Part shown: positions 13,260 through 36,794 of the stretch, piece by piece | Position numbering within the stretch: the stretch's first letter is position 1 | How the letters are laid out: each line of letters opens with the position of its first letter | Virus record (IMG/VR): IMGVR_UViG_3300037418_003024 | Location: 1-64,000 of that record | DNA from: a virus | Reading direction: 5' to 3' (one strand) | Length of the DNA stretch: 64,000 nucleotides | Program-made: the position numbers and the translations under genes | The notes under the pieces: model-generated | Told to the model about the DNA's origin: nothing | Databases searched by the model: none | The model's input: only the letters and a program-made list of their open reading frames with translations

Positions 13260-13284
13260 TTCACGCCGCCCGACTCGTTACGTA

Positions 13285-13313
13285 GCTCAATGGCCGTGGG
13301 GGCGCATTGGAGC
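13285..13313 (+). promoter_or_regulatory. RBS-sequestering hairpin, copy 1 (before major capsid)
   Basis: GCTCAATGGCCGTGGGGGCGCATTGGAGC; near-identical copies at 21690 and 36767. Confidence 0.7.
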
Positions 13314-13319
13314 TTATAG

Positions 13320-14996
13320 ATGCTTACTATGTTCGACCGGGTCTCTGTACCCGATCGTATCGGAGTGGTCGGCGAGGGTTGGGTGCCGGGGATCACCGGT
13401 ATCGGCCATCCCGAGCTTTCCTTGTGGATCAACAAGTCGATCGAGGATGAAGCGAACCTCGAAAAGGCTTTGACGACCGGCGCCAACATCGTCCAGGTCG
13501 GCGACACGGGCGGTACCGCGCTTCGTATGCAGTTCCTGCATGACGAGCTCGAATACGTATCGTTCAACCAGGACGACGCGAAGCTGATGAAGCTTCTGCC
13601 GAAGAAGACGGTTGGCTCGACCACTTTCGAGTGGACCATCTTCAACCAGTACGGCGGCCCCGGCGACGGCTTCGTCTCGGAGACCGGCTCCGATGGCGCG
13701 TTCGGCGTGTCGGGTGCGGACGACAACTTCGTACGTCAGTTCCAGCGTGTCCACTATATGGCCACGCAGCGCACCGTCGGCCTCGTCGCTCAGATGGTGA
13801 ATAACATCACCAACCCGATGAAGGCCGCTGAGCAGGGCGCGAACTTCGAACTGCTCGCCAAGCAGAACCTGGCGTCGTATTGGGGGGCGGAGACTCTCTC
13901 TACCAACCAGTTCAACGGTATGGCGGAGCAGATTCTCGCATGGGTTCGCACGTACTCCAGCGACTCGGCAATCATCTACGACGCCGGCGGACTCCCGGTC
14001 GACAAGGACATGCTGACCGACATTACGAAGACGAGCCGCAAGAAGTTCGGCCGCCCGTCACTCTGGCTGACGTCGGTCGACTCCCTTGCCGATACCCAGA
14101 AGCTTCTCTTCCCCGAGCAGCGCGCGGGTGAAGGCGATACGGGGTCGATGGGCATCAATAAGCGCGAGTTCGTCACGTCGAACGCGGGTAACGGTGGAAA
14201 GCTCAAGCTCGACGATGATGTGATGCTTCGCCCGAACCGCCCCCTGGTCGCGGATGGCAACGGCATCGACGGCAAGCCGCGCTCTGCCACCACGGCGGAC
14301 AGCGGCGCTCTCGCGTTCGCGGCGACCCCGTTCGCTGCCTGCGCCGCTCAGGCGGCTGGAACCGGCAACTACTGGTCGAACGTCAACCTGAACACCGATT
14401 CGGCCATTCTGGGCACCGCGCCGAACGTGCCGACCACCGGGGCGGGCGGCAACGCCGGCAACCGGCTTTCGGCCGGAACTTACTACTACGCGCTTGCTCC
14501 GGTCTACCAGGGCAAGGAAGGCGTCGCGTGGGTGTACGGTGCGGCCACGGCCGGAACCGTGACCGGTGCGACCGGCGTGTCGCCGACGGCTGGGCAGATC
14601 GTCAAGATCGATGTCGACCTGACCACCCCGTGCATTACGGGCCTCGGCTCGACCTATGCCCGCAACCTGGTCAAGTGGCGCGTTTATCGCGCGCTCTCGA
14701 CGGCGACGGGTCTGAGCGACTTTGATTACCTCTGCGATATCGGCAACCCATCCGCTGGCAACGCCCGCGGTTACGACAACGGAATGTACATTCCGGGGTC
14801 GGACAATGGGTTCTCGATCACCGAGAGCAAGAACGGCGCGTCGGGCTGGGGCCTGTACTCGCTGATGCCGCTCATCAAGCGCCCGCTCCCGCATCTCGCG
14901 ATGGCCGACTTGTTCGCCCTGCTGTGGTTCGGTACGTTCCTCTTCCTCGCGCCACGGCACCAGATCTGGGTGCGCAACATCGGCCAGAAGCAGTAA
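13320..14996 (+). CDS. Major capsid protein, Twort/SPO1 (Herelleviridae)-like
   Basis: KALTTG...ALRMQFL, VNNITNP, NQFNGM and C-terminal LMPLIKRPL...FALLWFGT..LAP....VRNI resemble Twort-like MCPs. Confidence 0.85.
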   Translation: MLTMFDRVSVPDRIGVVGEGWVPGITGIGHPELSLWINKSIEDEANLEKALTTGANIVQVGDTGGTALRMQFLHDELEYVSFNQDDAKLMKLLPKKTVGSTTFEWTIFNQYGGPGDGFVSETGSDGAFGVSGADDNFVRQFQRVHYMATQRTVGLVAQMVNNITNPMKAAEQGANFELLAKQNLASYWGAETLSTNQFNGMAEQILAWVRTYSSDSAIIYDAGGLPVDKDMLTDITKTSRKKFGRPSLWLTSVDSLADTQKLLFPEQRAGEGDTGSMGINKREFVTSNAGNGGKLKLDDDVMLRPNRPLVADGNGIDGKPRSATTADSGALAFAATPFAACAAQAAGTGNYWSNVNLNTDSAILGTAPNVPTTGAGGNAGNRLSAGTYYYALAPVYQGKEGVAWVYGAATAGTVTGATGVSPTAGQIVKIDVDLTTPCITGLGSTYARNLVKWRVYRALSTATGLSDFDYLCDIGNPSAGNARGYDNGMYIPGSDNGFSITESKNGASGWGLYSLMPLIKRPLPHLAMADLFALLWFGTFLFLAPRHQIWVRNIGQKQ

Positions 14997-15021
14997 GCAC
15001 TGCGTTTACCTAATACCTCTT

Positions 15022-15046
15022 AGCCTCCCGGTTCGCCGGGAGGCTT
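15022..15046 (+). terminator. Hairpin after MCP (weak terminator or mRNA-stabilising stem)
   Basis: AGCCTCCCGG-TTCG-CCGGGAGGCT; short U tract. Confidence 0.6.
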
Positions 15047-15068
15047 GACCTCAAAGGGGGCTAACCCA

Positions 15069-15533
15069 ATGTCTCGCAAATCGATTCAGGATGCCTTTCC
15101 TGCGTTCCGCGCCGGACTGGGCACTCCGATGCAGCTTAACATCGGCTATAAGGGTGCGGCGATTACGGCGGCGACAAACGCTCTGAAGCAGTGGAGTGTT
15201 CCGGCCGCGCTGATGCCGGACCGTGCAGGGAAAGTGCTTCGCCTCGCACATCTCAATCTCTTCGTCGACGGACCAGGGACCGGCGCGACCGGTGGCAACT
15301 GGACGTTTACCGTGACCAACGGCGCAGGAACCGTCCTCGGCACGGCAGTGATTGCGTACAACGCGTCGGTGCTGTCGGCGTCCGTCGACCTGCGCACGAA
15401 TGCGATTGGGCAGGCGATCGCGGCCGGCGATACGTTGTCGCTTAATCTGACCGGAGTACCCACCGGTACCCTGACCGGTTTGACCTCGGTGTCGGCGGAA
15501 ATCCTGGCCGAGACGTACGGAATCGAGGCGTAA
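15069..15533 (+). CDS. Putative capsid decoration/structural protein
   Basis: G/A/T-rich beta-type sequence directly after MCP. Confidence 0.55.
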   Translation: MSRKSIQDAFPAFRAGLGTPMQLNIGYKGAAITAATNALKQWSVPAALMPDRAGKVLRLAHLNLFVDGPGTGATGGNWTFTVTNGAGTVLGTAVIAYNASVLSASVDLRTNAIGQAIAAGDTLSLNLTGVPTGTLTGLTSVSAEILAETYGIEA

Positions 15534-15537
15534 CAAC

Positions 15538-16305
15538 ATGGCAAAGCGCCTACGAACCTCTGTTTCGCACATGAACTGCGACCGGGTCGCGCTCGGCGAT
15601 TCGGTCGTTAAGTTCACGCGTGTCGGCCGCGAGTGGATCAGTGAGCCGATCTCCGACGACGTCGCCGACGCTGCCGAATCGCATCCGCATTTTGGCGTCT
15701 ACGAGACGGACGAAGAGATCACGCCAACCGAGATCAACCCGAGTATCGTCAACTTGTCCGATACGGTCGAAGTCGAGCGAATGCTTCGTGCAATGCCGGC
15801 CGAAGAGTTGCCGACTTTCGTGCGCTTCATCGAGAATACGCCCAATTTGGTCGCTGTGCTCATCAACACGCTCGACGAAGACACGCTCCGGGAATTCGTA
15901 CGCCGTGAGGTGTTCGCGGAAGACCTGATCGGATACGTCAAGGACCCGGTTCCGGTTCTGTGTAGCATCGTCGTGTCAAATGCGGATTTCATCAGCGAGC
16001 TTCGCGACAAGGCGATGGCGTTTAAGCCCGATCAGGACGCCGTCTTGGCTGGCGGAGTGACTACCGCCGGCGACCTCGACCAGGGCACGCTCACGGACGA
16101 GGAGAAAAGCCTTTTCGACAAGCTGAACCTCGGCGGCCCGGAGGGAGATGCAACCGAATCCGGCGATGCTCCGGAGGCAACCGAACCGGCGCGCGGTAAA
16201 GATGGCACGGACGTGCCGGATGGCGAGTCGAAAACCACGAACGAGACTGAAGATCCGCTCGAGGCCGCGATCGAGACGGCCAAGCGGAACAAGAAGGCCA
16301 AGTAA
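15538..16305 (+). CDS. Hypothetical protein with acidic C-terminus
   Basis: Coupled ORF in the structural operon. Confidence 0.7.
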   Translation: MAKRLRTSVSHMNCDRVALGDSVVKFTRVGREWISEPISDDVADAAESHPHFGVYETDEEITPTEINPSIVNLSDTVEVERMLRAMPAEELPTFVRFIENTPNLVAVLINTLDEDTLREFVRREVFAEDLIGYVKDPVPVLCSIVVSNADFISELRDKAMAFKPDQDAVLAGGVTTAGDLDQGTLTDEEKSLFDKLNLGGPEGDATESGDAPEATEPARGKDGTDVPDGESKTTNETEDPLEAAIETAKRNKKAK

Positions 16306-17099
16306 TGATCGAGGTTACCGACGTCAAATCGCATCTGGTCGGACTGGGGCCGTGGCTCGACGCCGCGGCCCAGTGCAAGTTTCGGTATGACGACAAGGTC
16401 ATTGCAACCAAAAAGATTCCGCAGGTCGTGCGGACGCTTGAGCGCGAGACGTTGTTCCGGATCAACCCGATTCAGGTCGTTTCGTCGCCGGATGGAACGT
16501 ACGACAGTGGACAGTCCAATTACTCGACGCTCCCAAGCGGACGCATGCTGCTGATTGAGGATGGATACACGTATCGCCGCGAAATGGCGCAAGAGTACTT
16601 CACCATCCAGCTCAGGCAGTGGCCAGCGACCACGGTCCAGCGGGTGCGTGTAGTAATTGGGACGTCGACCGTATTCACGATGCCGGCGATTTGGTATTCA
16701 CTGGAATCGAAGACCGCGACATTCAGTATCCAACCGGTCTATGGACCGCTCCTGATTTCGTCATTGAATGCGTTCTCGGCACTCGAATTCACCTTCGGCG
16801 CGAAAGACTACTTGCGCAACGCCATCAAAGTCGACTACCAGGCCGGATTGCCTGTGGGATGGGAAAGTCTGTCGGAATTCGCGGATATCTACAAGTGGGT
16901 CTGTCAGGCGATCGCACTCCAGATATTGGAAGACGTCTCGGAGCTTGCCGACGCCGGGCTCATTTCCGTATCCGCCGGCGGCGACACGCGAACTTACTCG
17001 CGATTCAAGGACCGCAAGGAAGAATTGAAGGCCGCGGTCGACAACTTCCGGACCACACTGCAGGAGCAGGAAACGCCGGTGATGCTGGGATTCGTCTAA
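16305..17099 (+). CDS. Putative head-tail adaptor
   Basis: Position; IKVDYQAGL motif typical of adaptor proteins. Confidence 0.55.
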   Translation: MIEVTDVKSHLVGLGPWLDAAAQCKFRYDDKVIATKKIPQVVRTLERETLFRINPIQVVSSPDGTYDSGQSNYSTLPSGRMLLIEDGYTYRREMAQEYFTIQLRQWPATTVQRVRVVIGTSTVFTMPAIWYSLESKTATFSIQPVYGPLLISSLNAFSALEFTFGAKDYLRNAIKVDYQAGLPVGWESLSEFADIYKWVCQAIALQILEDVSELADAGLISVSAGGDTRTYSRFKDRKEELKAAVDNFRTTLQEQETPVMLGFV

Positions 17100-18020
17100 A
17101 TGCTGATCGACCGATCAACCGAACAGGGCTATCCAGGCGCGGAGTGGCGCCCGGGCGTTCTGCCGTCGCCGCAATCTCAGTCCGCGGCTATAAGCACGCA
17201 TCCTAAGTCGGTTATGGTACAATGGTACCAGGCATACGCAAACCCGCAGTATGTCAAGACGGCACGGCCGGCTCCGCAACAGGACGCGTACGTACGCGAA
17301 TTGCAGACAGGCCCATTTTGGGCAATAGTCAGTAGTTCGGAGCGGGCTATGAAACGCTGGTTTCCAGAGGGTTCCTGGACGGCTGGCGACATCGCCTTGA
17401 CATACGACGAGTCGCAAATGGATCTCTCCATTTACGACAGGATCATACCAACGGGAGCCGGTACTTCAAACCCCGGCCAGCCGGATGCCCCCACGTTCCA
17501 GTATAAGGAGCTCGTCACACGTGCTGCAACCACGTCGACTCTGCCTGGAACGATCACGAATGTTGGCTCGTCCGTAATAGGTACCGGCACTCGATTCACG
17601 TCCGATCTTCGGGTTGGCGACGTCGTATCGATTGGCGGCAGTATGTACGTCGTCGCAACGATCGCCGACGACATGCATCTCACCTTCGCTTCTCCCCCTT
17701 CCCACAACTGGCAGAACGTCGCCTGCCTGCGCGCCTACGATAGCGTCATTATGTCGCCGATCGCTTCGGTTGCTCAGGTTCGCGACGCATCGACCGTCTA
17801 CACGGCGTCCGACTACGCCATTGCCAGCGACTCGGGGGGAATCGATTGGCTCAGTCCGTCCAGACAGCCAGCACCAGGCGCTACATACAGCTTGTCTTAC
17901 CGCTACTACCCGACCTATCAGGTGACGGAGTATGGTACGAAGGGCCGCGTCGTCGCCGGTCGCCCCGAATTGTCCGTGGTCCTGTGCACGCTCTTGCGGC
18001 CGGATACTCAGACGCGGTAA
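17100..18020 (+). CDS. Putative head-closure/neck protein with inserted beta domain
   Basis: Position; GTITNVGSSVIGTGTRFTSDLRVGD insert of a type seen in tail proteins. Confidence 0.5.
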   Translation: MLIDRSTEQGYPGAEWRPGVLPSPQSQSAAISTHPKSVMVQWYQAYANPQYVKTARPAPQQDAYVRELQTGPFWAIVSSSERAMKRWFPEGSWTAGDIALTYDESQMDLSIYDRIIPTGAGTSNPGQPDAPTFQYKELVTRAATTSTLPGTITNVGSSVIGTGTRFTSDLRVGDVVSIGGSMYVVATIADDMHLTFASPPSHNWQNVACLRAYDSVIMSPIASVAQVRDASTVYTASDYAIASDSGGIDWLSPSRQPAPGATYSLSYRYYPTYQVTEYGTKGRVVAGRPELSVVLCTLLRPDTQTR

Positions 18021-18082
18021 CTCAGCTTGCTCTTGAGTTTAGTGCGCGCCGCGAGGGCGCATGTCGCCGGAAACCGGAAGAT

Positions 18083-18610
18083 GTGGTCCGCAAGCGCATC
18101 GATGAAATCATGCGTACGCCCTCGAAGCGCGAATACTGGCTGAGGCGGGCCGGGCATATCGTCGGGCGCTATGCGGAACCGGAGGATGTCTTGGGGCGGT
18201 GCTGCGCTCGAGCGTTGATCTCCGGCCATACGTACGATATCCGACGCGACTTCGACGCCTGGTTTGCGACAATCGTACGGACCGTCTCCTGGCGGATGTG
18301 CGGCAAGCATTCGACAATCATCAAGCACGAGGTGCAGATCATTCCGGAGGAGCGCATCAACATCGAGCCGGAGGATCTTCCGGACGAGGAGTTCGACCCT
18401 GACAATTCAGTTCGGTGGCAGCAGATCCAGACGGCGCTCGGCGAGATTCCTGAAGAGCAACGGGCGCTCTTGATCGATCACTACTTGAACGGCAAAGGGC
18501 TAGGCGACATGGCCGCCCTGCACGGTCGAACGAAGACGGCAATGACGATCAGGCTGCAACGCGCGAGGGCCGCATTGAGGAACGCTCTTGGTCATCATCG
18601 AGACAATTGA
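18083..18610 (+). CDS. ECF-type sigma factor
   Basis: AEPEDVL...FDAWFATIVR (region 2) and ALGEIPEEQRALL...TIRLQRARAALR (region 4); start GTG 18083 or ATG 18110. Confidence 0.75.
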   Translation: MVRKRIDEIMRTPSKREYWLRRAGHIVGRYAEPEDVLGRCCARALISGHTYDIRRDFDAWFATIVRTVSWRMCGKHSTIIKHEVQIIPEERINIEPEDLPDEEFDPDNSVRWQQIQTALGEIPEEQRALLIDHYLNGKGLGDMAALHGRTKTAMTIRLQRARAALRNALGHHRDN

Positions 18611-19334
18611 AAATGCGCTGGATGGCGTCCATGCGAATGTGACGACATCAGGCACGCCGAACGGCGCGTTGTCGTTCAAGATTTGCCGCCTTCCCGACTA
18701 CACCCAGTCCGGCGCTGCGGCATCATCGCTCATCAGCGGGTCGACGTACGCGGTCACGGTTCCTTTCCCGGCGCTCTGGTATGTCTGGGCGGTCGACAGT
18801 GACGGTGCAGTCGACCCTGGCGCGTGCTGGGTGTGCAACACGAACGATCCAGATCTCCGTTCCTGCGGTGAGAAGATCGCGGCGATTCTACTGGAGCACA
18901 AGGCCGGTTTGGACGCTGCGCTCCTCGAATTGTCGGATACGTCGACGGTCAAGCAAATCGTCTTCGGACGATCGCTCAACGTCGACGATTTTCCGGCCAT
19001 TATCGTGACGAAGGCTCATAAACAAGAGTCTTACGTCGGATTGGGATATATCCGCGAAGTGCTGTTCTCGTTCCAGATCTCCTTCGCGTTTTTCCATCAG
19101 GATGAAGCGACACAGCTTCCGATCGCGACCAGTATGTCAGACCGCATCATCTCGATTTTGAACTTACCGGCGTATTCGTCGCTGGTTCTCGATACCGGAA
19201 CTCCGCTGACCGGGTGTCTGGCGACCGAGGGCGACTCGGACGAAGAGGAAGTCCAGGAGAAAACATGGGCGGCAGCGGCCACGGTCGTGTGGTCGGCTCA
19301 AGGACTCATTCAGGATACGGGGGCACTCTATTGA
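18588..19334 (+). CDS. Putative tail terminator/completion protein
   Basis: Position; FPAIIV motif. Confidence 0.45.
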   Translation: MVIIETIENALDGVHANVTTSGTPNGALSFKICRLPDYTQSGAAASSLISGSTYAVTVPFPALWYVWAVDSDGAVDPGACWVCNTNDPDLRSCGEKIAAILLEHKAGLDAALLELSDTSTVKQIVFGRSLNVDDFPAIIVTKAHKQESYVGLGYIREVLFSFQISFAFFHQDEATQLPIATSMSDRIISILNLPAYSSLVLDTGTPLTGCLATEGDSDEEEVQEKTWAAAATVVWSAQGLIQDTGALY

Positions 19335-19840
19335 TGGATTACAACCTGATAACGGAGAAGCCGATCCGCGATGGTTTCGGCTTGATCTACCAGGGCGGTT
19401 GGTTTGGCCGTGGCCTTTGGTCTCTGGAAATGCCAATCTTTGTCGTGCAGATGGATGAGTATCATGATGAGCATCGATTCATTCATCATCGTCGTGGGTT
19501 TATTGGCGTGCTAAGCCTGCGGATTCTCGACTGCCCCGAACCTCTCCCCGAACAACCGGAACATGGCGGTAACGCGATCGGGCCTTTACCCGACTACGAA
19601 TATCTGGCTGCCGTTGATTGCATTATCGGCTACCTAAGCCGAGGTGTAAATGTCTACATTCATTGCGCGGCTGGCGTGAGCCGTTCATCGTACATGACGT
19701 TGGGCGTTCTGATGCGAACGATGGATTTAAGTTTTGACGAAGCTTTGGCCTATTTACGGTCGCGTAGACCGAAGGCCGACCCAAATCGGGGCTTCGTGGC
19801 GCATCTTCGCCGGTTGGAAGGAGCGTTGAGATCATCATGA
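19334..19840 (+). CDS. Dual-specificity protein phosphatase
   Basis: Active-site VYIHCAAGVSRS (CX5R) and C-terminal RP..DPNRGF..HL. Confidence 0.9.
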   Translation: MDYNLITEKPIRDGFGLIYQGGWFGRGLWSLEMPIFVVQMDEYHDEHRFIHHRRGFIGVLSLRILDCPEPLPEQPEHGGNAIGPLPDYEYLAAVDCIIGYLSRGVNVYIHCAAGVSRSSYMTLGVLMRTMDLSFDEALAYLRSRRPKADPNRGFVAHLRRLEGALRSS

Positions 19841-20655
19841 TAAGCCATACTTTTCCTCCCGATCTTACCCTTGACGATTTCTGCGCGATTTCGGATGCGC
19901 TCACCCACGTCATCCGCGAGCTTCTGGCCGTCGCTGGCGGCGGCGTGTCTGTGCCGATCGAGCAAGACTTCGGCTATTCGCGTGCAGTCCGTCAGTACGA
20001 AGCCAGACTGCTCGCCATCCCGCATTACCCGACGACGTCGCGTCTCCTGCAGAAGGCGCATGGAAAGACGATGCGCCTAGGTCTGCAATGGGTACTCGAC
20101 CACACATACGACCTCATTCAAGACCTCTCCAATGTCTGTGCCGCGACGGAACTCCCAGTTTCGACTCGCCACTCCAATATCGTCGGATACGCCACGCACT
20201 TCAACACGGGGGCCGGAGGTCCGTACCGGGCGCTTCTTTCCCGCGAGCTGGCCGATGTCTTTGAACTTCTCTACCGCGGGACCAATATCGACCCGTCGAA
20301 CATCTACGCGCCGGCGATCGAGAATATGGCGAGCCGTACGGTCGGCTCAGCAGCCGTGATCGGCGAATTCATCGACTCCACTCGCTACGCCGGCGCGCCG
20401 ATTATTGCCCGTGTTCAAGGCTACACCGGTGGTCCTGGGATGCTGACAGTGATCGGCAGCGGCCGAATGGCGCATGGCGGTGTCGCTTCCGACGCTCGTG
20501 TGTGGTCGGTGCAGGTCGGCAGCAGTGGCGAATTCGAGTTGTTGCCGGACGTCGACGGCGACCTATGCCTCGCCGTACGCGATATCGGTTTGCCGGCACC
20601 TATGACCGCTGGTACGGTCACGATTGAGGGCCTGTTACCGGAAAGGCTTCGCTGA
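19837..20655 (+). CDS. Hypothetical structural-region protein
   Basis: ATGA coupling. Confidence 0.65.
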   Translation: MISHTFPPDLTLDDFCAISDALTHVIRELLAVAGGGVSVPIEQDFGYSRAVRQYEARLLAIPHYPTTSRLLQKAHGKTMRLGLQWVLDHTYDLIQDLSNVCAATELPVSTRHSNIVGYATHFNTGAGGPYRALLSRELADVFELLYRGTNIDPSNIYAPAIENMASRTVGSAAVIGEFIDSTRYAGAPIIARVQGYTGGPGMLTVIGSGRMAHGGVASDARVWSVQVGSSGEFELLPDVDGDLCLAVRDIGLPAPMTAGTVTIEGLLPERLR

Positions 20656-21257
20656 TGGCGCTTACAAGTCGGGTCATTTGGCTGCCGCTCGGAATGCGGC
20701 TAATACAATATCAGGACGTCGAAGCGGCTCAAGCGATGCTGAAGATCCAGCGTGAGCGACTTTCCAACACGACGCCATATTTGAAGGCTGTCGCCAACAT
20801 CATGCGCGCCGATTTCCGACGACAGTTCGCGGAAGGTGGCGATCCGAAATGGAAGGCGCTCGCGCCGTCTACTATCAGGCAGAAGCAGCAGATGGGATAC
20901 CCGCGGTTAACGGCGAAGGGGAATATCCCTCGCCGGTTGGTCCAGTCCGGAAACTTCGGCGCTTCGAACATTCTGATCCGCACGGGGCGATTGAGGGATG
21001 CGTGGGGTAGGCTCGGCAGCCCTGACCATTATGAGAAGATCGACCCGAAGGAAGGCACCGTTCGCATGGGGCCGAAGCTCGATCGGTTGCCGTATGCGCG
21101 GATGATGCAAAAAGGTGGCACCGTTCAATTGAACGGGCGACGCGTCGTTATCCCGGCTCGACCGGTGCGCGTGACGGATTCGGCAATCCGGAGTATTGTC
21201 CGGTTCTCGCAAGACTATTTTACGAAGGGTGAGGGTTCGCCTAATGGAAGCGAGTGA
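20655..21257 (+). CDS. Phage virion morphogenesis protein (Mu gpG/P2 gpS family)
   Basis: F..GGDPKWKALAPST...ILIRTGRLRD...YARMMQKGG...IPARP. Confidence 0.8.
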   Translation: MALTSRVIWLPLGMRLIQYQDVEAAQAMLKIQRERLSNTTPYLKAVANIMRADFRRQFAEGGDPKWKALAPSTIRQKQQMGYPRLTAKGNIPRRLVQSGNFGASNILIRTGRLRDAWGRLGSPDHYEKIDPKEGTVRMGPKLDRLPYARMMQKGGTVQLNGRRVVIPARPVRVTDSAIRSIVRFSQDYFTKGEGSPNGSE

Positions 21258-21678
21258 AATACGGCGCCAGATCGTCGTCGTCGAGCAGAATGCGTTTCGC
21301 GCATGCCAGGCGTGCGCCGGCAGTGTCGGACACGATCCTAACGTCGGCATCATATGCGCGCGGGATCCGAAGGTCGAAGACTGCGGACTACTCGCGGTGA
21401 ACGGGCTGCGGTCCGCCGAGAACCCCGAAGCGCTGCTCGAGCAGATGACGGAAGACTGGGCGATGAGCTTCGTGCGACCGAAAAACCAGGAGGCTCCAGC
21501 GGTACCGTCGACCGACGTTGCGACGGGAATACCGCGCGTTGGAACCGATGTCTCGGCGGACGGCGTGACACGCGTGGCAGCCATTGCACAGGCAAAGTCG
21601 CCGGATACGATTCCGGCACCATCCGTTCCAGGGCAGGCCGAACCAACCGCCGGACAATCCGAGGACCCAACGCACTAA
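21244..21678 (+). CDS. Hypothetical protein with Cys cluster
   Basis: ACQAC...IIC...DC; P/A-rich tail. Confidence 0.6.
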   Translation: MEASEIRRQIVVVEQNAFRACQACAGSVGHDPNVGIICARDPKVEDCGLLAVNGLRSAENPEALLEQMTEDWAMSFVRPKNQEAPAVPSTDVATGIPRVGTDVSADGVTRVAAIAQAKSPDTIPAPSVPGQAEPTAGQSEDPTH

Positions 21679-21689
21679 GATATCAGGCA

Positions 21690-21719
21690 GCTTCAATGGC
21701 CGTGGGGGCGCACTGGAGC
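21690..21719 (+). promoter_or_regulatory. RBS-sequestering hairpin, copy 2 (before tail tube)
   Basis: GCTTCAATGGCCGTGGGGGCGCACTGGAGC. Confidence 0.7.
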
Positions 21720-21723
21720 ATGC

Positions 21724-22590
21724 ATGTCGGCTGTAACACAATTTTATAAGGCTATATGCAACATCGGCGGAAATCAGTATCCGGTACTGCCGACCGCGCA
21801 ATTCACGATGCCGAAGAACTTCATCATCCCGCCGGTCATCGGAAACTACTGGCAGTGGAACTTCGCCGAAGGTTTCCAGCAGCCATCGGTGGATCTCGTT
21901 TTTCTGTGCCGGGACAAGGGGTCTCTCGGCTCTCTGTCCGAAGTTCTCTCGACCACGTTCCTCAATTATTGGCTCACGCGAACCAGCGATGCCGCGCACG
22001 ATACGACGGCGATCGGTAGCGGTGTCGCGTTCTGGGACGGTCGCAGTGGATTTACGCTCGGCGGCGCGAAAGCGGAATCGTTCACCCTCTCCGGGGCGAA
22101 AGGTCAACTCCTGCAGTTCACCGGACGGTTCCTGTTCAACAGCATCACGCCTCTTGGCGCCGCCCCGTCGTTCACCGCGTGGGACAATTCGGCTCCGCTG
22201 ATCGGCAAGAACGTCACGTTCGACGGCAATTTTGCGAATGAGGCGTGGAACTTCGGGCTGTCATTTGCGAACAACCACACTCCCGACATGTCGATGGATG
22301 GCACGAACCTGCCGACCGACAACAACGCCGGGCTGATGACGGCCGGCCTCAACGTGACGGCTCAAGCGGCGCTTTTGACGTTCCCGGACAACAACCCGGT
22401 ACCTGGTTCGCTGACCGCCATCAATATCACCATCACCGGCGCCAACGGTACCCGGGTGTTCACGATCAATAATCCGATCAACCAAACGCCGAACAATCGA
22501 GCCGTGCCGCTGGGTCGCGTGATGCGACAGCATTCGTACGTGGCCATCGGCGGGAACGGACAGACGACCCCGCCGCTCAGCATCTCGTAA
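21724..22590 (+). CDS. Putative major tail tube protein
   Basis: 288 aa, beta-rich, immediately before chaperone and tape measure. Confidence 0.65.
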   Translation: MSAVTQFYKAICNIGGNQYPVLPTAQFTMPKNFIIPPVIGNYWQWNFAEGFQQPSVDLVFLCRDKGSLGSLSEVLSTTFLNYWLTRTSDAAHDTTAIGSGVAFWDGRSGFTLGGAKAESFTLSGAKGQLLQFTGRFLFNSITPLGAAPSFTAWDNSAPLIGKNVTFDGNFANEAWNFGLSFANNHTPDMSMDGTNLPTDNNAGLMTAGLNVTAQAALLTFPDNNPVPGSLTAINITITGANGTRVFTINNPINQTPNNRAVPLGRVMRQHSYVAIGGNGQTTPPLSIS

Positions 22591-22629
22591 CTTAACATTT
22601 CGACAATAAAAACTGGGGGCTAGAAGACT

Positions 22630-23163
22630 ATGACGAAGGTCAAGATCACCTTGCGCGTCGTGGAACGCAAGGACACGGGCGAGACGTTCATCGTCCCGTC
22701 GGACGCAGAAATCGCTGAATCGAAGCGGCTTGAGATTGCCGGGCTGGATCAGCAGATCGCCGCGCGCAAGGCCGCGACGGAGTCGCCGGCTCAAAAGCGC
22801 GCTATCGAGATGCTGGACGAGGCGAAGCACGAGATCGATGCACGGTACGCGCGCTGGGAGGCGGATGTCCAGGCCGCTTTGCCGGAAGCGCGCGAATTGA
22901 CGTTCGACCTGACGCGGCCGCAATTCGGCGAGCAGCGCCGAGCCTATGGCGCTGCGCAGAAGCTCGACTACGACAATGCGCAGGCGATTCTGGACAGTTC
23001 CGAGTACCAGTATCAGCTCCTCGTGTCAGCAGTCGGGAATGAGGACGAGGTTTCGAAACTGGATCCGGTCGTTGCGCAGGAGCTCAGCCGGCGCGTGTAC
23101 CGCATGGTTCACCCGGACGGCAAGCGGCTCCCTTTTGTTGCTGGGCCGCCCTCCAACTCGTAA
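22630..23163 (+). CDS. Tail assembly chaperone (gpG-like)
   Basis: Position; in-frame slippery heptamer C CCT TTT at 23130-23136. Confidence 0.65.
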   Translation: MTKVKITLRVVERKDTGETFIVPSDAEIAESKRLEIAGLDQQIAARKAATESPAQKRAIEMLDEAKHEIDARYARWEADVQAALPEARELTFDLTRPQFGEQRRAYGAAQKLDYDNAQAILDSSEYQYQLLVSAVGNEDEVSKLDPVVAQELSRRVYRMVHPDGKRLPFVAGPPSNS

Positions 23164-23324
23164 AGGGTGAGCCGATAGACGATCGGTTGATACCGCTTGA
23201 GGTCGCATGGTACATCGGATGGCGTGATCGTGGGGAGTTGCCGCGGCCTCTCTACGAAATGCCGTCCGATGAGGCGATGATGATCCTCGCGATCGATGCC
23301 GAGGTTCGTTCGCACGGGCTGTAG
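22630..23324 (+). CDS. Tail assembly chaperone -1 frameshift product (gpGT-like)
   Basis: The -1 frame is open from 23136 to TAG 23322-23324 (CCWAALQLVKGEP...AEVRSHGL). Confidence 0.65.
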
Positions 23325-23355
23325 CCTCCGGGAAAGTCCGGAGGCTTTTCGTTTT
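23323..23355 (+). terminator. Intrinsic terminator before tape measure
   Basis: AGCCTCCGGG-AAAG-TCCGGAGGCT followed by TTTCGTTTT. Confidence 0.7.
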
Positions 23356-23366
23356 AGAGAGGCGTT

Positions 23367-26654: not shown

Positions 26655-27771
26655 CAACTGACGCCGAATGATATACGGTAACATCGCCAAGACCCCATGT
26701 TTGCGAGGCTGCGTTCAAGCTTTGTTGCGCAGCATTTAAATCGGCACCTGCAAGATCATTATATTGTTCTGATTCTCGTAGGTACTTTCCTAGGATTGCA
26801 AACGTTTCGCTGTCAATCGGCACATTTGCAATGCTTCCATAGGGCTCAAGTGCGAGTTTATAGTCGCGAAGATACTTAGCAGATTCGAGGTCATCGTTGA
26901 AATGTTTGATCACATACTTTATGGCATGATCAAAAAAAATGCGATCATCATTTGGCAGCTTCTCGCTTATGTTGAGACTAGATATTGTATCGATCGCCCT
27001 CTCTGTAGCATTTTCCGCGTCCTGCTGAACCTTCGAGTCATCAGGTAATTCGGCCAAGAATGAATTTGCCCGTTCACAATCTGGTGCGCTCTTAGCCAAT
27101 GTTGAATTGAAGTCGTCGATAAAGTCCTGGACCGCCTGCCGATCCTTCGTGATGCTTTCCACGTGCATCCCGCTTGTAATTGAAACTCTCGCCACCTCCA
27201 TATCTGACCAGTCTAAACCTTGTGCGGACGAAGTAGTACCGAACTGTATTCCAATCGGTTGCGCAGTAATCGTGCAAGCCCCAATCTTTTCTTGGTCAAG
27301 ATAGGCTGTCATAGTTGAACCGGAGCGGCATACCGAAAAGGCGTGCCATTTGGTGTCACTTTTCGTTTGGCGCCCGACGACGTTATTACCGAGAGTGTAA
27401 ACGATACCGTTACGATCGCAGTGAACTCGGATGACCATATTCCCGTCCTTGTCGGGACAGAGAATAGAATCGCCGTAGTTACCCCATCGAATGTATCTAA
27501 AAACGAAAGATGCCGACCATTCCGTTGACGGAAATGGATTGGTGTTTAGTTGAACTAAGGGGAAAGAACCGGGATCAGGATGTGGACCGATTCGGCCTAA
27601 CGCTTGGAGGATAAGCTCGTGCGGCTCGAATGATGCTCGTCCGCCTCCTGATACAGTCCAGTGTAAAGCCGAAACGTTAGGAGAACTGAAGTCGTCTGAG
27701 AACTCGGCATGAGCCGAACCGACCGCGAGCAGACATAGCGCTGCCGCGAGAGACGTGCGAAGTAATGACAT
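26641..27771 (-). CDS. Secreted/periplasmic moron protein (beta-sandwich plus helical domain)
   Basis: Signal peptide MSLLRTSLAAALCLLAVGSAHA; AT-richer than flanks; opposite strand; own promoter. Confidence 0.75.
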   Translation of the reverse strand: MSLLRTSLAAALCLLAVGSAHAEFSDDFSSPNVSALHWTVSGGGRASFEPHELILQALGRIGPHPDPGSFPLVQLNTNPFPSTEWSASFVFRYIRWGNYGDSILCPDKDGNMVIRVHCDRNGIVYTLGNNVVGRQTKSDTKWHAFSVCRSGSTMTAYLDQEKIGACTITAQPIGIQFGTTSSAQGLDWSDMEVARVSITSGMHVESITKDRQAVQDFIDDFNSTLAKSAPDCERANSFLAELPDDSKVQQDAENATERAIDTISSLNISEKLPNDDRIFFDHAIKYVIKHFNDDLESAKYLRDYKLALEPYGSIANVPIDSETFAILGKYLRESEQYNDLAGADLNAAQQSLNAASQTWGLGDVTVYHSASVATAD

Positions 27772-27883: not shown

Positions 27884-27918
27884 CAATATCGAACATGTAT
27901 TCGATATTGTGGTATAAC
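27884..27918 (+). promoter_or_regulatory. Palindromic LexA(SOS)-like box over an extended -10 promoter
   Basis: CAATATCGAACATGTATTCGATATTG (CGAAC-N4-ATTCG), then TGG-TATAAC 6 nt before ATG 27925. Confidence 0.55.
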
Positions 27919-27924
27919 TAACTT

Positions 27925-28521: not shown

Positions 28522-28547
28522 GAGAGTCAGTATACCGACTCTTCTGA

Positions 28548-28657
28548 ATAGGTTCGTAAAAATTTACGAACCTAACTATTGACAAGGCGGATTCGGCCCT
28601 GTATAATCTCTATTATACGAACCTAACGTTGAGAATGTCAATAACAACGAACCTAAC
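28548..28657. promoter_or_regulatory. Overlapping opposed promoters with four ACGAACCTA operator repeats
   Basis: + TTGACA(28579)-N17-TATAAT(28602); - TTGACA(28641)-N18-TATAAT(28617); repeats at 28549 (inverted), 28566, 28617 and 28647. Confidence 0.8.
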
Positions 28658-28674
28658 GTCAGGAAAGGTGTATT

Positions 28675-28929
28675 ATGCTTAATCTGCTGGATAAAGAGGT
28701 AGCTTATCAGTCACACGTTCGAAACAACGATCGCTCTGGTTTCAATGTGGACGGTTGTTTTTATTGTGGTGGTAATCATCCGTCGGACTGTTGCATGAGT
28801 GATGCAAAAAGCGAGTATTGGCAACAGCCTTGTGAGCACGGAGTGCCCGATGGCGAACTGTGTTCTATCTGTGATGTTGAGCCAGAAGACGCTATTGAAT
28901 TTGTGGAGTGGTCGGACGACACCCCGTAG
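28675..28929 (+). CDS. Small Cys-rich protein
   Basis: CFYC, CEH, CSIC; AAGGTG RBS. Confidence 0.6.
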   Translation: MLNLLDKEVAYQSHVRNNDRSGFNVDGCFYCGGNHPSDCCMSDAKSEYWQQPCEHGVPDGELCSICDVEPEDAIEFVEWSDDTP

Positions 28930-28974
28930 TGCGTGAACCGGGGCCGCGCATCGTACACGCGGAAGGAAACTCAC

Positions 28975-30408
28975 ATGACGAACACGACCATTGAACGACC
29001 GACCTTCGTGGTAAACGCCATTGCGGCCAAAGAGTCGGCCGAGCAGAATGAGAAGCGCCGACAGGAGGAAGAGACTAAAGCGATTTTACAGCGCTGCCAC
29101 GCACTTGCGACCGATGCTTGCCAGCGGCGTAGCCCCGATCTCCTGCAGTACTTCGAACCGAAGTTGCCTTGGGGTTTTTCTTGCGGACAATACAACACCC
29201 TGAATGTGAGGCGATTTTTACAGCCTATACCGGGTGTCGGTCCTATTCTCGTTACAGTGTCGGGGCGTAAAGAAAACTTAATCGGCAAGCTGGACGGTAA
29301 GGATGACGACCCGTTCGCTGAATCTGGACACCGCGACAATCTTGCGGTCACCCTCACGTACTACGGTCCGAATGTCGATGTATCCAATCTCTCGAAGCTC
29401 GACAATTATTTCCGGTCGGACGTGACGGTAAATATCGTTTCGGCACCTGATGAGCGGTGGAATGAGTTCTGGGTCAAGGCTGCCGCGATGTTCGACGAGG
29501 CCGAACAGAGTCGATTGCGAGACGAAGCGAACAAGGCTGCAAACGAGCGACGCCAACGGGCCGGAGAGATCGGTAATCGGCTCCGCTATCGTGACGACGC
29601 GTTCGATTCCGTCGAGTCTGCAAAAGAAGCGATGAATCAGGCAATCAGTCTGGACCCTGCCAACACTGATCACTATCGCGCTTCATTTTCCGACTGGAAG
29701 TCTCGTTTCGAGAGTTGGGCTCGAATGAAGGCGGCGTGGGAGGAGCATGGCCCCGCGTTCATTGCAGCTTGGCAGGCGTGGGCTGTCGATTACGCTAAAG
29801 CCAAGTTCACAACCATCAGCAACCTCGAAAAGTGGGCCGAAGGGCTGGGCGAGGATGCGACTCATGAGTTCCGGTTGACGTATGCAGCGGTTGCTACGGA
29901 TGATGGCGAATCGTACCTGGAGCAAGGCGACGTGACCGTCCTCAGCTATAAGCCGGATGCCAACGGCTTCTACTCCGTCGTGAAATACGGCAATATCCAG
30001 AAAGTCAAGTACACCAATATCGTTTCGATCGAGGACTGCGGCATAAAGAGCTGGCGTCGAGATTTGACCGGGCTGTGCCGCAAACCCTACGTAGGTACGT
30101 ACCAGATTGTCCTGCCGCCCACAATCGATATGCCCATTGATCAGATTGAAGCGGCAGTGAAGCGATCCATGCTGATAATCGACCTTCCAGAAGAGCCGGT
30201 TGCACCGCCGGAGTTGTCCCGTCGCCAATGTGCCGCGTGTGCCCGAGAGGCTATCCGTAACATCGTCGAAGGCGCGGCCCCGGCGGTGGAAGCTTGGTTC
30301 AAGTACCTGCCGATCAGTACGCAATTTGACAGCCAGCAATCGCCGTCTAACCACTACGTAGTCGAGACCGATCGGCCTATAAAACTGGGGGCGAGCAGTG
30401 AAGAATAG
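28975..30408 (+). CDS. Hypothetical protein
   Basis: 477 aa, AAGGA RBS. Confidence 0.75.
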   Translation: MTNTTIERPTFVVNAIAAKESAEQNEKRRQEEETKAILQRCHALATDACQRRSPDLLQYFEPKLPWGFSCGQYNTLNVRRFLQPIPGVGPILVTVSGRKENLIGKLDGKDDDPFAESGHRDNLAVTLTYYGPNVDVSNLSKLDNYFRSDVTVNIVSAPDERWNEFWVKAAAMFDEAEQSRLRDEANKAANERRQRAGEIGNRLRYRDDAFDSVESAKEAMNQAISLDPANTDHYRASFSDWKSRFESWARMKAAWEEHGPAFIAAWQAWAVDYAKAKFTTISNLEKWAEGLGEDATHEFRLTYAAVATDDGESYLEQGDVTVLSYKPDANGFYSVVKYGNIQKVKYTNIVSIEDCGIKSWRRDLTGLCRKPYVGTYQIVLPPTIDMPIDQIEAAVKRSMLIIDLPEEPVAPPELSRRQCAACAREAIRNIVEGAAPAVEAWFKYLPISTQFDSQQSPSNHYVVETDRPIKLGASSEE

Positions 30409-31366: not shown

Positions 31367-31408
31367 CCACGCCGGGGCGCGGCGGACACGCGCGAAGGAG
31401 AGACGACA

Positions 31409-31696
31409 TTGATCAACATAACTAAATCAGACTTCACTAAGCTCATGACAGTCTTCCGCGAGCACGGGGAGGCGAGCGCTGATCTACGCGAAGCATTAAT
31501 TACCATGGGATTCAAGAAGAAGCCCGACGGCGAGTTCGATTACTCAGGTATCACCGACGATCAATATCAGGTGTTGTCGCCGCTGCTGGGTCGTGTAGGC
31601 ATGTCCGCTGCTGAGTTCAGGGATTTACTTGGCGCGCAAGTGACATTGAATGGGAAAGTGTATGGTCGAGGATTTATTGACGACGGTGAGGAGTAG
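31409..31696 (+). CDS. Hypothetical protein
   Basis: AAGGAG RBS, TTG start. Confidence 0.55.
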   Translation: MINITKSDFTKLMTVFREHGEASADLREALITMGFKKKPDGEFDYSGITDDQYQVLSPLLGRVGMSAAEFRDLLGAQVTLNGKVYGRGFIDDGEE

Positions 31697-31700
31697 GCTA

Positions 31701-32162
31701 ATGACCGATAACACGCAACCGCCCTTGACGGCGGCGGAACTGGACAAGATGGAGAGTCATCCTGGTTGTGACGATATACGGAGGCGTCTCATTCGTGAAC
31801 TCCGTGACGCGCGCGCCCGTCTCGCCGCCATCGACGCGGCGGCGAAGGGCGACGTAGTTGAGGCGATAATGGACGCGCATCTGAAATATGAGGCGTTCTC
31901 AGATGTTTGCGGCACGAGTAACCAGAAAGCGATTGAGGCTCTGGATGTTGTCCGCAGTATGATCGCCGCCGAGGTTGCGCGCGCGGACGTCGCTGAGGCG
32001 CGGGCCGAACGCGCGGAGGCGGAACGGGATGCGATGCGGCCCGTCGTGGAGGCGGCGAAGACGTGGAACCGCGCGAAACACGACAGTGCCGACGCATGGC
32101 ATAAGCTGCAGGCGGTAAGGCATGCGGTCGATAATATCGCCGCGCTCGAGGAGGGGAAGTGA
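31701..32162 (+). CDS. Hypothetical coiled-coil protein
   Basis: GAGGAG RBS. Confidence 0.6.
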   Translation: MTDNTQPPLTAAELDKMESHPGCDDIRRRLIRELRDARARLAAIDAAAKGDVVEAIMDAHLKYEAFSDVCGTSNQKAIEALDVVRSMIAAEVARADVAEARAERAEAERDAMRPVVEAAKTWNRAKHDSADAWHKLQAVRHAVDNIAALEEGK

Positions 32163-32187
32163 TAACCTCCATCTCCTCGACGGCTAC
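32159..32187 (+). promoter_or_regulatory. Putative phage-sigma promoter (GTGATA-N16-CGGCTAC)
   Basis: Recurring motif; heads the modification cluster. Confidence 0.55.
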
Positions 32188-32210
32188 TTCCTTGCAGGGG
32201 GTAGCCTTTC

Positions 32211-34647: not shown

Positions 34648-34648
34648 T

Positions 34649-36766
34649 ATGGGATGCGGATGCAACGATAAGAAAAAGGCGTCGGCGCCGGTGACGTTCA
34701 CGGCTGAGGCCGTCGAGGAAAAGCCCCGGCCGACCGGTGCGATATGGACGGTCGTGGTTGGCACTCGCGGCGGCCGGGGGATGTCCCCAGGGCTGATTGA
34801 GTCGCTCTCGGCTATCAAGAACGCCATGATCGAGTCGCACAATCAGGAGATCCGAGTCGTCATCGTCGACACGACCGTCATCGACTTCCCGGATTACGAT
34901 GTCCCCGTTGGCTTCAATATTGTTTTCATGCCGGCGAAGGAGTACTCGTGGGCGCGCGCCATGAACCTGGGCGCAACGTATTACCGGTCGTCTCACTTCC
35001 TGCTGTTCCTCCATGACGACGTGACGCTGCCGGAAGGTCCAGGCTGGCTGCGCGCCCTGCAGGAGGCGTTGGTCGACCGCGCCTGCATCGCCGTCCCGCG
35101 TGTGACCGGGCATTGCTCGTGCCCGCCGCAAGCCGGGGAGGACGACACGCCCCTGTTGTCGTTCGAAATCACAGAGTACATTTCTCCGGCCGTCGTCGCG
35201 ATCAGGCGCGATGTCTTTGTGAAGGCAGGAATGTTCCCGGACGAAATGGACGGTTACGATTGGGCACAGATCGCGCTACAGGATACCGTGGCGCGAATGG
35301 GTGGCTCGACGGTCGTCGTCCCGTCCGTGGTCGTCCACCACGCAGGGGAAAGCTCCTACACCGCCGATGAGCGCATGCAGGGCTGGGAGCGGAACATGAT
35401 TCGCTATGCCGAGATCACCGGGCAACGCGCTGAGTACAAACGCCGTCCGACGCGTGTGCGGCTCCCTTCGGCGGTCGATCGCAAGGGGCCGGCCCTGCTC
35501 TTCGTGGTCGAGGCCAATGAATCGATTGAGCGAGTGCGCAAGATCATTGACGAGAAGATGTCGACGGCGGCCGAGGTCGTGATCGTCGACCTCGCGGCGA
35601 CGGCCGAGCGGTCGGAGTCGTTTCACGCTGTTGAACAGGGGGTGAAGCTGCCGGTTCGGTATGCGCCGGCGTGGGATTCCGATCCGCTGCGGCAGGTGGT
35701 AAACCTCGCGGCTTCGCGTGACGCCGAATTGTACGACATGCGCGTCGGTGCGCCCGTGCCGGCGGTGCCGATCGTCGGGCCTCGGCTCCGCACGGGCTGG
35801 ACATATGCGCTGCCGCAACTGCTCGAGGAGATCCATCTCGGCTACCTGCAGCACGCCGGCATCGGCGACACGGTCATGACGACGCCCGCCCTCCACGCGT
35901 TCCGGCAACGGTGGCCGCATATTCGGATCGTCGCGCATCATGCATGGGCGGCCGGAGAAATCCTGCAGTTCAACCCCGATATCGACGAACTCGTCATTTA
36001 CAATTCCGGTGACCCGAACGTGCTGCCCGAAACCTTCGATATGATGGCCGGTTACGGAATGGAGGGGGCTGTTCGGCAGGCGTATCAAACCCTGTGCGTT
36101 GAGGATCTGACCGATGAACCGCGTCGCGTCCGTTACTTCTTGCAACGAGAGGAGCATGATGCGGCGGTTAAACTGCTGGCCGAACTCGGCCTTCCGCCGA
36201 CGGCGAAGCGCCTGGTCGGGATCCAGTTGCACGGAAACTGGCAGGCCAAGAACTGGTCGTCCGTCGGCGATCTGGTGCGGGCGGTTGCCGGACGCATCGG
36301 CGAGGGGTGGTATCCGATCGTGTTCGGGACCGACCAGGAGCGCATGGCGGATATCTCCGGCGTGCCGCACGTGGCGATCACGCAACAGCCACTCAGGATC
36401 GCGGCGGCGGTTATCGGGCTCCTGGATTGCCTCGTCGGGTTCGACAGCGGGCTCGGATGGCTCGCGGTGGCGCTGCGCACCCCGTGTATTAGCCTTTGGG
36501 GTCCGACCAACCCGCGTGGGTATCTGCTCGACGTCGAGACGACCAACCTCGTGACCATTCGCAAGCGCGTGCCCGACCAGTGCAAAGAGGCGACTGGTGT
36601 AAGCTGCCGCGATTTCACGTCCGGCGCCCGGTGCCCACTGCGTAAAGGGTGGGGGGCAGATTGTATCGACGAAATAACCGTCGACGAAGTCATGGGACAT
36701 TTGGAGGCGATGCCGACGTGGGATCGCCCGATTGAAGACCGCTGGTACGAGAGGCTGGCGGGATAG
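34649..36766 (+). CDS. GT2 + GT9 glycosyltransferase fusion
   Basis: ARAMNLG...LFLHDD (GT2); AGIGDTVMTTPAL...VGFDSGLGWLAVAL...LWGPT (GT9). Confidence 0.85.
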   Translation: MGCGCNDKKKASAPVTFTAEAVEEKPRPTGAIWTVVVGTRGGRGMSPGLIESLSAIKNAMIESHNQEIRVVIVDTTVIDFPDYDVPVGFNIVFMPAKEYSWARAMNLGATYYRSSHFLLFLHDDVTLPEGPGWLRALQEALVDRACIAVPRVTGHCSCPPQAGEDDTPLLSFEITEYISPAVVAIRRDVFVKAGMFPDEMDGYDWAQIALQDTVARMGGSTVVVPSVVVHHAGESSYTADERMQGWERNMIRYAEITGQRAEYKRRPTRVRLPSAVDRKGPALLFVVEANESIERVRKIIDEKMSTAAEVVIVDLAATAERSESFHAVEQGVKLPVRYAPAWDSDPLRQVVNLAASRDAELYDMRVGAPVPAVPIVGPRLRTGWTYALPQLLEEIHLGYLQHAGIGDTVMTTPALHAFRQRWPHIRIVAHHAWAAGEILQFNPDIDELVIYNSGDPNVLPETFDMMAGYGMEGAVRQAYQTLCVEDLTDEPRRVRYFLQREEHDAAVKLLAELGLPPTAKRLVGIQLHGNWQAKNWSSVGDLVRAVAGRIGEGWYPIVFGTDQERMADISGVPHVAITQQPLRIAAAVIGLLDCLVGFDSGLGWLAVALRTPCISLWGPTNPRGYLLDVETTNLVTIRKRVPDQCKEATGVSCRDFTSGARCPLRKGWGADCIDEITVDEVMGHLEAMPTWDRPIEDRWYERLAG

Positions 36767-36794
36767 GCTTCATGGCGTGGGGGCGCATTGGAGC
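36767..36794 (+). promoter_or_regulatory. RBS-sequestering hairpin, copy 3 (before radical SAM gene)
   Basis: GCTTCATGGCGTGGGGGCGCATTGGAGC; GTG start at 36800. Confidence 0.65.

Follow-up and report, generated by a model that had tools for sequence, protein, structure and literature searches.

Short leader signals placed at the translation starts of selected phage genes have been described before, and in this work we compare with them a stem-loop element from an uncultured soil phage genome of 94,731 nucleotides (nt; IMG/VR record IMGVR_UViG_3300037418_003024), the first 64 kb of which (64,000 nt) constitute the window analysed here. The element stands before the genes of the major capsid protein, the tail tube protein and a radical SAM/SPASM protein, and the explanation which we favour, tentatively, is that of a cis-acting RNA cassette, composed of a stem-loop and a ribosome-binding site, which gates initiation at three cistrons inside long late operons.

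The first system for comparison is the SAS family of cluster K mycobacteriophages, defined by a 13-bp asymmetric consensus, GGGATAGGAGCCC, with at most two mismatches (PMC3203893; PMC12699233, survey of 188 genomes). These sequences are present in 11–19 copies, are restricted to the non-structural half of the genome and end, at their 3' side, a few bp before start codons; for SAS and ESAS a still untested role in translation initiation has been proposed (PMC3203893, PMC12699233). The element described here is likewise a short repeat of one orientation, located just before the start codons of a subset of genes, with a GGAG-type core and an association with an inverted repeat. The inverted repeat of ESAS, however, lies upstream of SAS, whereas here the ribosome-binding site itself forms the 3' arm; moreover, there are only three copies (capsid, tube, radical SAM), two of them on structural genes, and the sequences show no similarity. 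Since sequence, copy number and gene set all differ, we place the element outside the SAS family.

Inhibitory leader helices of T4 genes were reportedly described by McPheeters et al. in 1986. In the leaders of T4 e, soc, 49 and I-TevI the ribosome-binding site or start codon is sequestered in a helix of read-through transcripts, which serves as a temporal gate, and a late promoter lies in the 5' strand of these inhibitory helices, so that late transcripts are devoid of that arm (PMC3014915). Pairing of the Shine-Dalgarno site in a local helix is also predicted for the element studied here. Each T4 helix is unique in sequence, whereas in this phage one sequence is used three times, and no promoter was recognised in its 5' arm, which was compared with sigma-70-like sites and with the GATA family of repeats discussed below. 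A third kind of signal is represented by the boxB/nut hairpins of lambda and the coat-protein operators of RNA phages, in which a small hairpin combines a variable stem with a loop of specific sequence, and which recur within a genome and differ between relatives.

As far as the data reach, the element constitutes a new sequence family of a kind of phage leader signal already known, seen in one uncultured lineage. The initial annotation of this DNA, which called the motif undescribed, was therefore right about the sequence family, not found in Rfam, but not about the kind of signal (PMC3203893, PMC3014915).

Three copies of a stem-loop with a ribosome-binding site

The element is 28–31 nt long, and the whole record holds three copies of it and none more, all on the plus (coding) strand (Table 1), in agreement with the positions near 13285, 21690 and 36767 proposed at first. 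Its 18-nt 3' half, GTGGGGGCGCAYTGGAGC, gave three perfect matches and no others with up to three mismatches allowed; shuffled sequences are expected to give 0.17 matches, and none of 100 shuffles reached three. In an alignment with 45-nt flanks the similarity ends at the element edges and the flanks are unrelated. The copies differ by three single-base indels in the 5' half (GCTC vs GCTTC; AATGGCC vs ATGGC) and by one T/C change in the 3' half, and because change events are so few, the seeming difference between a soft 5' and a hard 3' half carries no statistical weight. This three-copy cassette of stem-loop and ribosome-binding site is real and sharply defined.

Copy 3 starts immediately 3' of the TAG stop codon (36764–36766) of a gene for a 768-amino-acid (aa) protein with a GT9 domain, and the gap from the upstream stop codon to the element amounts to 24 nt for the first copy and 11 nt for the second. 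The cistrons located upstream of the copies are those of the protease and scaffold, tail-completion genes and glycosyltransferases. In copies 1, 2 and 3 GGAG is separated from the start codon by 7, 5 and 6 nt.

Table 1 Positions of the element copies, their target genes and features of transcription (window and genome share one numbering)
Feature	Position	Strand	Details
Motif copy 1	13284–13314	+	AGCTCAATGGCCGTGGGGGCGCATTGGAGCT; covariance model 53 bits
Copy 1, 5' arm	13284–13295	+	
Copy 1, loop	13296–13300	+	GTGGG
Copy 1, 3' arm	13301–13314	+	bulged G13304 and G13309; GGAG 13309–13312
Motif copy 2	21690–21719	+	GCTTCAATGGCCGTGGGGGCGCACTGGAGC; covariance model 57 bits
Copy 2, 5' arm	21690–21701	+	
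Copy 2, loop	21702–21706	+	
Copy 2, 3' arm	21707–21719	+	GGAG 21715–21718
Motif copy 3	36767–36794	+	GCTTCATGGCGTGGGGGCGCATTGGAGC; GGAG 36790–36793; covariance model 49 bits
Major capsid protein gene	13320–14996	+	558 aa; phrog_752 major head protein, E 2.7e-38; start ATG 13320
Tail tube protein gene	21724–22590	+	288 aa; start ATG 21724; homologues match PF18906 Phage_tube_2
Radical SAM/SPASM gene	36800–38419	+	PF04055 and sub-threshold SPASM match; probable start GTG 36800
Strong hairpin after capsid gene	15018–15041	+	AGCCTCCCGG-TTCG-CCGGGAGGCT; -21.5 kcal/mol when folded within the stretch preceding the next gene; coordinates counted from the gap sequence
Intrinsic terminator	23323–23346	+	after tube and 177-aa genes; 10-bp stem, then TTTCGTTTTA
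Sigma-70-family gene	8484–9257		window
Sigma-70-family gene	17846–18610		window; inside the head-tail block
Sigma-70-family gene	71208–72515		genome
GATA-N17/18-G[GT]CTACTT	32161–32190		window
GATA-N17/18-G[GT]CTACTT	44749–44776		window
GATA-N17/18-G[GT]CTACTT	47267–47295		window
GATA-N17/18-G[GT]CTACTT	72515–72543		genome
GATA-N17/18-G[GT]CTACTT	86012–86040		genome
GATA-N17/18-G[GT]CTACTT, looser copies	near 10620; 64942		window; genome

The three targets were named correctly in the initial annotation: the capsid gene has a direct phrog_752 match, the tail tube gene is recognised through the PF18906 matches of its homologues, and the radical SAM gene through PF04055 together with the SPASM match below threshold. 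The capsid protein begins with MLTMFDRVSVP, which corresponds to MSSIFDRVSVP in a 67%-identical homologue (P0002), and because this N-terminus matches from there, ATG 13320 is taken as the start; the public gene call begins three codons downstream (P0001, 555 aa). Among GenBank phages no DNA match was obtained; there the capsid protein reaches only 20–25% identity, with capsids of Herelleviridae, and for the radical SAM protein nothing matched. The open reading frame (ORF) 21724–22590 has no direct Pfam or PHROG match itself; three homologues of its product with 46–48% identity (P0046, P0048 and P0050) score 33.5, 27.0 and 38.0 bits on PF18906 Phage_tube_2, the cut-off of which is 27 bits. The N-terminus MSAVTQFYK agrees with that of three homologues (P0043–P0045), and downstream of the gene follow a 177-aa ORF, a terminator and a 1095-aa ORF. 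The tail-tube assignment holds on account of the matches of the homologues, the neighbouring genes and the matching N-terminus. An AlphaFold model of the tube protein, made from four sequences, was not used because its mean pLDDT was as low as 49.8; the identity was settled via the Pfam matches of homologues. In case of the radical SAM gene GTG 36800 is the sole start with a properly spaced ribosome-binding site, and the N-terminus obtained in this way aligns with that of a 47%-identical homologue in a related phage, G002.

Folded in isolation, the hairpins of copies 1–3 reach -15.0, -15.0 and -15.6 kcal/mol, with z-scores of -3.2, -2.8 and -4.2, and 0, 1 and 0 of 200 shuffles fold as well. 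The predicted fold is a bulged helix of 12 bp (for copy 3, 10 bp divided between two stems), in which the G5 run sits in the hairpin loop and GGAG is paired in all copies, its predicted probability of being unpaired being 0–0.22 in a 120-nt context. Burial of GGAG by the stem, 5–7 nt before the start, and a G-rich loop had also been claimed in the initial annotation, and both were reproduced here. Compared across about 93 gene starts, the three leaders belong to the most structured ones. Non-homologous flanking bases lengthen the stem of copies 1 and 2, that of copy 2 by GCA/TGC, which brings it to -20.9 kcal/mol in a 56-nt context, and at all three independent sites the conserved block stops exactly at the helix base. 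The sense strand folds better than the antisense one (-14.8 vs -13.5, -15.0 vs -13.3 and -15.6 vs -6.6 kcal/mol for copies 1–3), because the stems hold G-U pairs. Block borders at the helix base, stem-extending flanks and strand bias favour a structure formed by the sense-strand RNA.

The same arms can also be viewed as an imperfect inverted repeat in DNA, GCT(T)CAATG...CATTGGAGC, and thus as an operator for a dimeric DNA-binding protein, or else the element could be a ribosome-site cassette which was spread by recombination between intergenic regions; its confinement to one genome lineage would fit, and three indels and one substitution are too few to prove purifying selection. Such a DNA-level or neutral origin appears very unlikely to us: conservation of the GC-rich centre (12 nt) equals that of the arms, all copies keep a single orientation and a fixed distance to the start codon, the G-U pairs weaken the symmetry of the antisense strand or duplex (copy 3, -6.6 vs -15.6 kcal/mol), and the borders match the helix at three independent sites.

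Leader hairpins in related phages

A covariance model built on the three copies recovered them at 49–57 bits and yielded no weaker ones in the genome or in nine related loci. Its best additional match, located in a relative (L004 12565–12599, E 0.064), was rejected as it is antisense within an ORF. A putative fourth copy at 10947–10957 (GCGCATTGGAG) was rejected as well, being a chance-level 11-mer that matches the 3' arm, has another fold and is followed by no ORF. In the window, at 10924–10966, two adjacent hairpins directly follow a tRNA (10847–10921), and the second of them holds GCGCATTGGAG, probably by chance. The exact 18-mer of the 3' half is absent from IMG/VR and has 20 single matches in unrelated taxa among 185,579 GTDB species genomes, none of them with the 5' arm, which by a rough estimate is about the chance level. 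With the covariance models of Rfam 15 the three loci gave no match at the motif up to E 1, nor did the window give one there at gathering score, and a search for a trans-acting RNA complementary to the loop and 3' arm gave merely scattered 8–9-mers within coding regions.

Homologues of the capsid protein reach down to 37% identity; the closest ones, P0002–P0005, share 57–67%, and the closest tube homologues, P0043–P0045, share 59–73% (proteins from ENA, JGI and Logan). Single-protein and alignment searches of IMG/VR, JGI metagenomes and GTDB yielded relatives with either 42–49% capsid identity or about 47% identity in the tube and radical SAM proteins and no closer ones, and those at 42–49% capsid identity lack the motif sequence. 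In one of them, L004 (46% capsid identity), TCCCCCCGT occurs only twice on the coding strand of the 36-kb contig, both times as the 7-nt loop of a 5-bp hairpin; one hairpin precedes the capsid ATG by 28 nt, the other the tube ATG by 20 nt. The two hairpins, ACGAC[UCCCCCC]GUCGU and CCAAU[UCCCCCC]GUUGG, form 5/5 pairs each, two pairs being changed on both sides. Judged from sequence, this pair supports the view that leader hairpins shared by capsid and tube genes may be a functional trait of the lineage. The L004 tube leader aligns weakly with the motif studied here, at 12/14 positions, and 5–9 of 500 shuffles do as well.

In G002, whose tube and radical SAM proteins are both 47% identical, the tube leader carries GGCCA-N8-TGGCC followed by GGGGAG, and the radical SAM leader carries a perfect 10-bp hairpin directly after the TAG stop codon, in a position like that of copy 3, followed by GGAGG, 5 nt and ATG. 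These two hairpins are mutually unrelated, and the contig has no further copy of either. Within the lineage, a hairpin placed after the stop codon and before the ribosome-binding site thus recurs at these junctions, and sharing of a hairpin by capsid and tube recurs once.

Two other observations were made in the relatives. The gene before the capsid gene repeats the N-terminal segment of the capsid with 70–77% DNA identity (L004 8856–8905 vs 10055–10104; L006 2613–2685 vs 4025–4097), which suggests a capsid-related paralogue or a shared delta-like domain. In G002 three tandem 95-nt tRNA-like units (L043 3234–3520) are found about 1 kb upstream of the tail tube gene.

Possible gating of translation initiation

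According to the explanation we favour, the cassette would be transcribed as an internal part of late operons and would act as a sense-strand RNA stem-loop with its Shine-Dalgarno site. The 5' arm GCU(U)CA(A)UGGC(C) would pair with GGCGCAYUGGAGC, burying GGAG in the bulged 12-bp helix of about -15 kcal/mol and displaying the G5 run in the loop. We infer that this helix folds in vivo and limits translation; with GGAG inside it, initiation at the three cistrons would need helix opening. The three cistrons would in this way obey one common initiation rule, uncoupled from the cistrons upstream. A translational gate of this type would explain the position of the element, its borders, the strand bias and the canonical spacing of GGAG altogether.

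Opening of the helix may be envisaged along three routes. It could be brought about by a ribosome terminating at the upstream stop codon, but the geometry would allow this at the radical SAM copy only, because there the helix begins right after the stop, whereas the gaps at the other copies are 24 and 11 nt. A trans-acting factor could read the invariant loop and 3' arm, or a new 5' end could be formed within the element. The loop could furthermore serve as a standby docking site, since G5 itself resembles a ribosome-binding site in this phage: G4-5 is the sole Shine-Dalgarno-like element upstream of 10 of 94 roughly called genes.

Several points weigh against gating. There is no covariation among the three copies, as 9 of 12 pairs are invariant and the other three just lose pairing, so the structure relies on thermodynamics. 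Some opener has to be assumed, because a helix of -15 kcal/mol should depress synthesis of the most abundant virion proteins, and no RNA-binding regulator was recognised among the about 65 phage proteins scanned. After removal of the 5' arm the ribosome-binding sites of the capsid and radical SAM genes are still predicted to be weakly paired, with GCUU just past the start codon. The L004 and G002 hairpins at the same junctions sit upstream of a ribosome-binding site that they leave free, and L005, L006 and L010 have no shared or comparable hairpin; occlusion of the ribosome-binding site is specific to this genome. Of the coordinated cis-regulatory RNA put forward in the initial annotation there remain the predicted fold and the paired GGAG, while covariation and conservation of the occlusion in relatives are missing.

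A more specific proposal, which we consider a long shot, is that the hairpin is an RNA operator of a putative phage-encoded regulator by which three products, namely capsid, tail tube and a virion-modifying radical SAM protein, would be co-activated in translation. Equally speculative would be its extension, in which sister phages carry different operator loops, GUGGGGG here and UCCCCCC in L004. The L004 hairpin pair looks similar to boxB and the coat-protein operators. Neither an N-like or coat-like protein, nor boxA, nor a promoter-proximal position turned up, no search being aimed at an N-like protein or boxA; terminators, which follow antitermination sites, are located 1.6–1.7 kb downstream of copies 1 and 2. 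If the operator proposal were true, the late structural genes would possess co-evolving specificity classes of operator and regulator, much as lambdoid phages have their N-boxB classes. An 83-aa protein (window 44499–44750), encoded just before a promoter-like site, is the one small candidate for nucleic-acid binding that was noticed, with a sub-threshold match to an HVO_2753-like zinc finger (22 vs 33-bit cut-off).

If the helix truly gates initiation, it would be a compact means to set the output of a few cistrons independently of their neighbours in late operons, and its invariant loop would offer a handle for finding a new RNA-binding regulator. The module of radical SAM and glycosyltransferase genes would then be tied to the capsid and tail programme, which would fit a role in virion modification. 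For the further suggestion, that structural-protein levels of the radical SAM protein are required, nothing speaks except the shared leader; it is unsupported, because such a leader sets an initiation rule, not abundance. For a three-copy signal of an already described kind, found in a single lineage, the gain is modest.

Transcription through the three sites and other features of the genome

On the coding strand of 10500–27000 no sigma-70-like promoter was found, and the terminator at 23323 is the only canonical one there. The genome contains just two families of repeated start-proximal motifs, namely the hairpin element and GATA-N17/18-G[GT]CTACTT (Table 1). The latter usually starts at the upstream stop codon, consists of two blocks with a fixed spacer and is probably a late promoter. 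Like the hairpin element it is start-proximal and late, and in three of its copies (32183, 44770, 86034) the CTACTT block pairs with GTAG beside the downstream G-rich ribosome-binding site, a layout resembling that of T4 gene e; it differs in its two-block, promoter-like layout and its unrelated sequence. For gene 32211 the accessibility of the ribosome-binding site is 0.0. The GATA family never occurs at the hairpin sites, where neither a GATA at fixed distance nor a CTACTT-like block is present. Because there is no sigma-70-like promoter on the coding strand of 10500–27000 and the GATA family is never found at these sites, the hairpin copies lie inside operons, and the simplest transcript map places them within long late operons, the nearest promoter-like site being roughly 2.7, 11 and 4.6 kb upstream of the respective copy. 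In practical terms, the start codons of three genes are fixed and the element is separated from the probable late promoter of the genome.

Three sigma-70-family proteins are encoded by the phage, and the element might instead be an internal promoter read by one of them, either in the manner of T4 gene e, transcription beginning within the hairpin and a free ribosome-binding site being left to promoter-made transcripts alone, or with TGGAGC as a -10 element, giving leaderless mRNAs which start at the ATG or GTG 6–8 nt downstream. It would then be one of the two repeated start-proximal motif families and would supply a promoter to a 15.6-kb head-tail block in which no other was recognised from about 10620 to 26654; with its roughly 29 nt the conserved block is as long as the span from -35 to -10, start codons follow 6–8 nt past TGGAG, and T4 offers a precedent with late promoters in the 5' strand of inhibitory helices (PMC3014915). 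We judge this distinctly improbable, however, as conservation is contiguous instead of forming two blocks with a free spacer, the would-be spacer being the most conserved part, and the three one-base indels in the 5' half shift the spacing by up to 2 nt. Furthermore, GGAG at 5–7 nt is the canonical layout of a ribosome-binding site, GGAG-type cores being used by many other genes of this phage, nothing is conserved upstream of the block, no similarity to the GATA-N18-GKCTACTT family exists, and a promoter does not need a hairpin. As to the sigma genes themselves, one of them is ECF-like (regions r2 and r4_2); it belongs to the head-tail operon, where the capsid gene and the tube gene stand on either side of it.

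Another possibility, unlikely in our opinion yet the strongest of the competing ones, is a generic intercistronic stem-loop that serves to process the RNA, to stabilise segments of the mRNA or to terminate part of the transcripts. Cleavage would take place at the hairpin, or the hairpin would guard one of the neighbouring segments, at its 5' end if downstream or at its 3' end if upstream; capsid and tube mRNA segments would accumulate, and overlap with the ribosome-binding site would be a by-product of short gaps, without regulatory meaning. In its favour, the capsid gene is bracketed by copy 1 and the strong 3' hairpin, and the tube and 177-aa genes by copy 2 and the canonical terminator; the unrelated hairpins sparing the ribosome-binding site at the same junctions of G002 (tube, radical SAM) would also agree with processing. 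A stabiliser of the 5' end that buries the ribosome-binding site would nevertheless counteract high expression, and the identical loop and 3' arm at three sites would be left unexplained. The helix is also short and bulged for an RNase III substrate, and no U-tract follows the stems: the terminator scan flags none of the three sites, whose tails are CUUAUAG, AUGCAUG and AUGAGGU. On balance, the translational gate inside late operons remains the explanation we prefer.

Outside the three junctions the genome showed some further features. A consensus host-type promoter, TTGACA-N17-TATAAT, is present at about 28.6 kb (window about 28560–28700), flanked by three operator-like copies of ACGAACCTAAC, and TTGACA-N17-GATAAA at about 52.4 kb (window about 52350–52416); early control regions are probably represented by both. 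A second, smaller leader motif, ATAAAACTGGGGGC, is common to genes 22630 and 30398 (22604–22625 and 30377–30395), with one extra A in that of 22630, and has a G5 ribosome-binding site. Directly after the primase-helicase gene (genome 67523–67811, L014:3523–3811) TTTTCCAGTTT / AAACTGGAAA repeats of either orientation are densely arrayed; they are iteron-like and may mark a replication origin. Finally, positions 1–82 of the window recur at genome 94375–94456, and the 357-nt tail of the record is 80% identical to its head without gaps, so the record is probably a circularly permuted, nearly complete genome and not a fragment.

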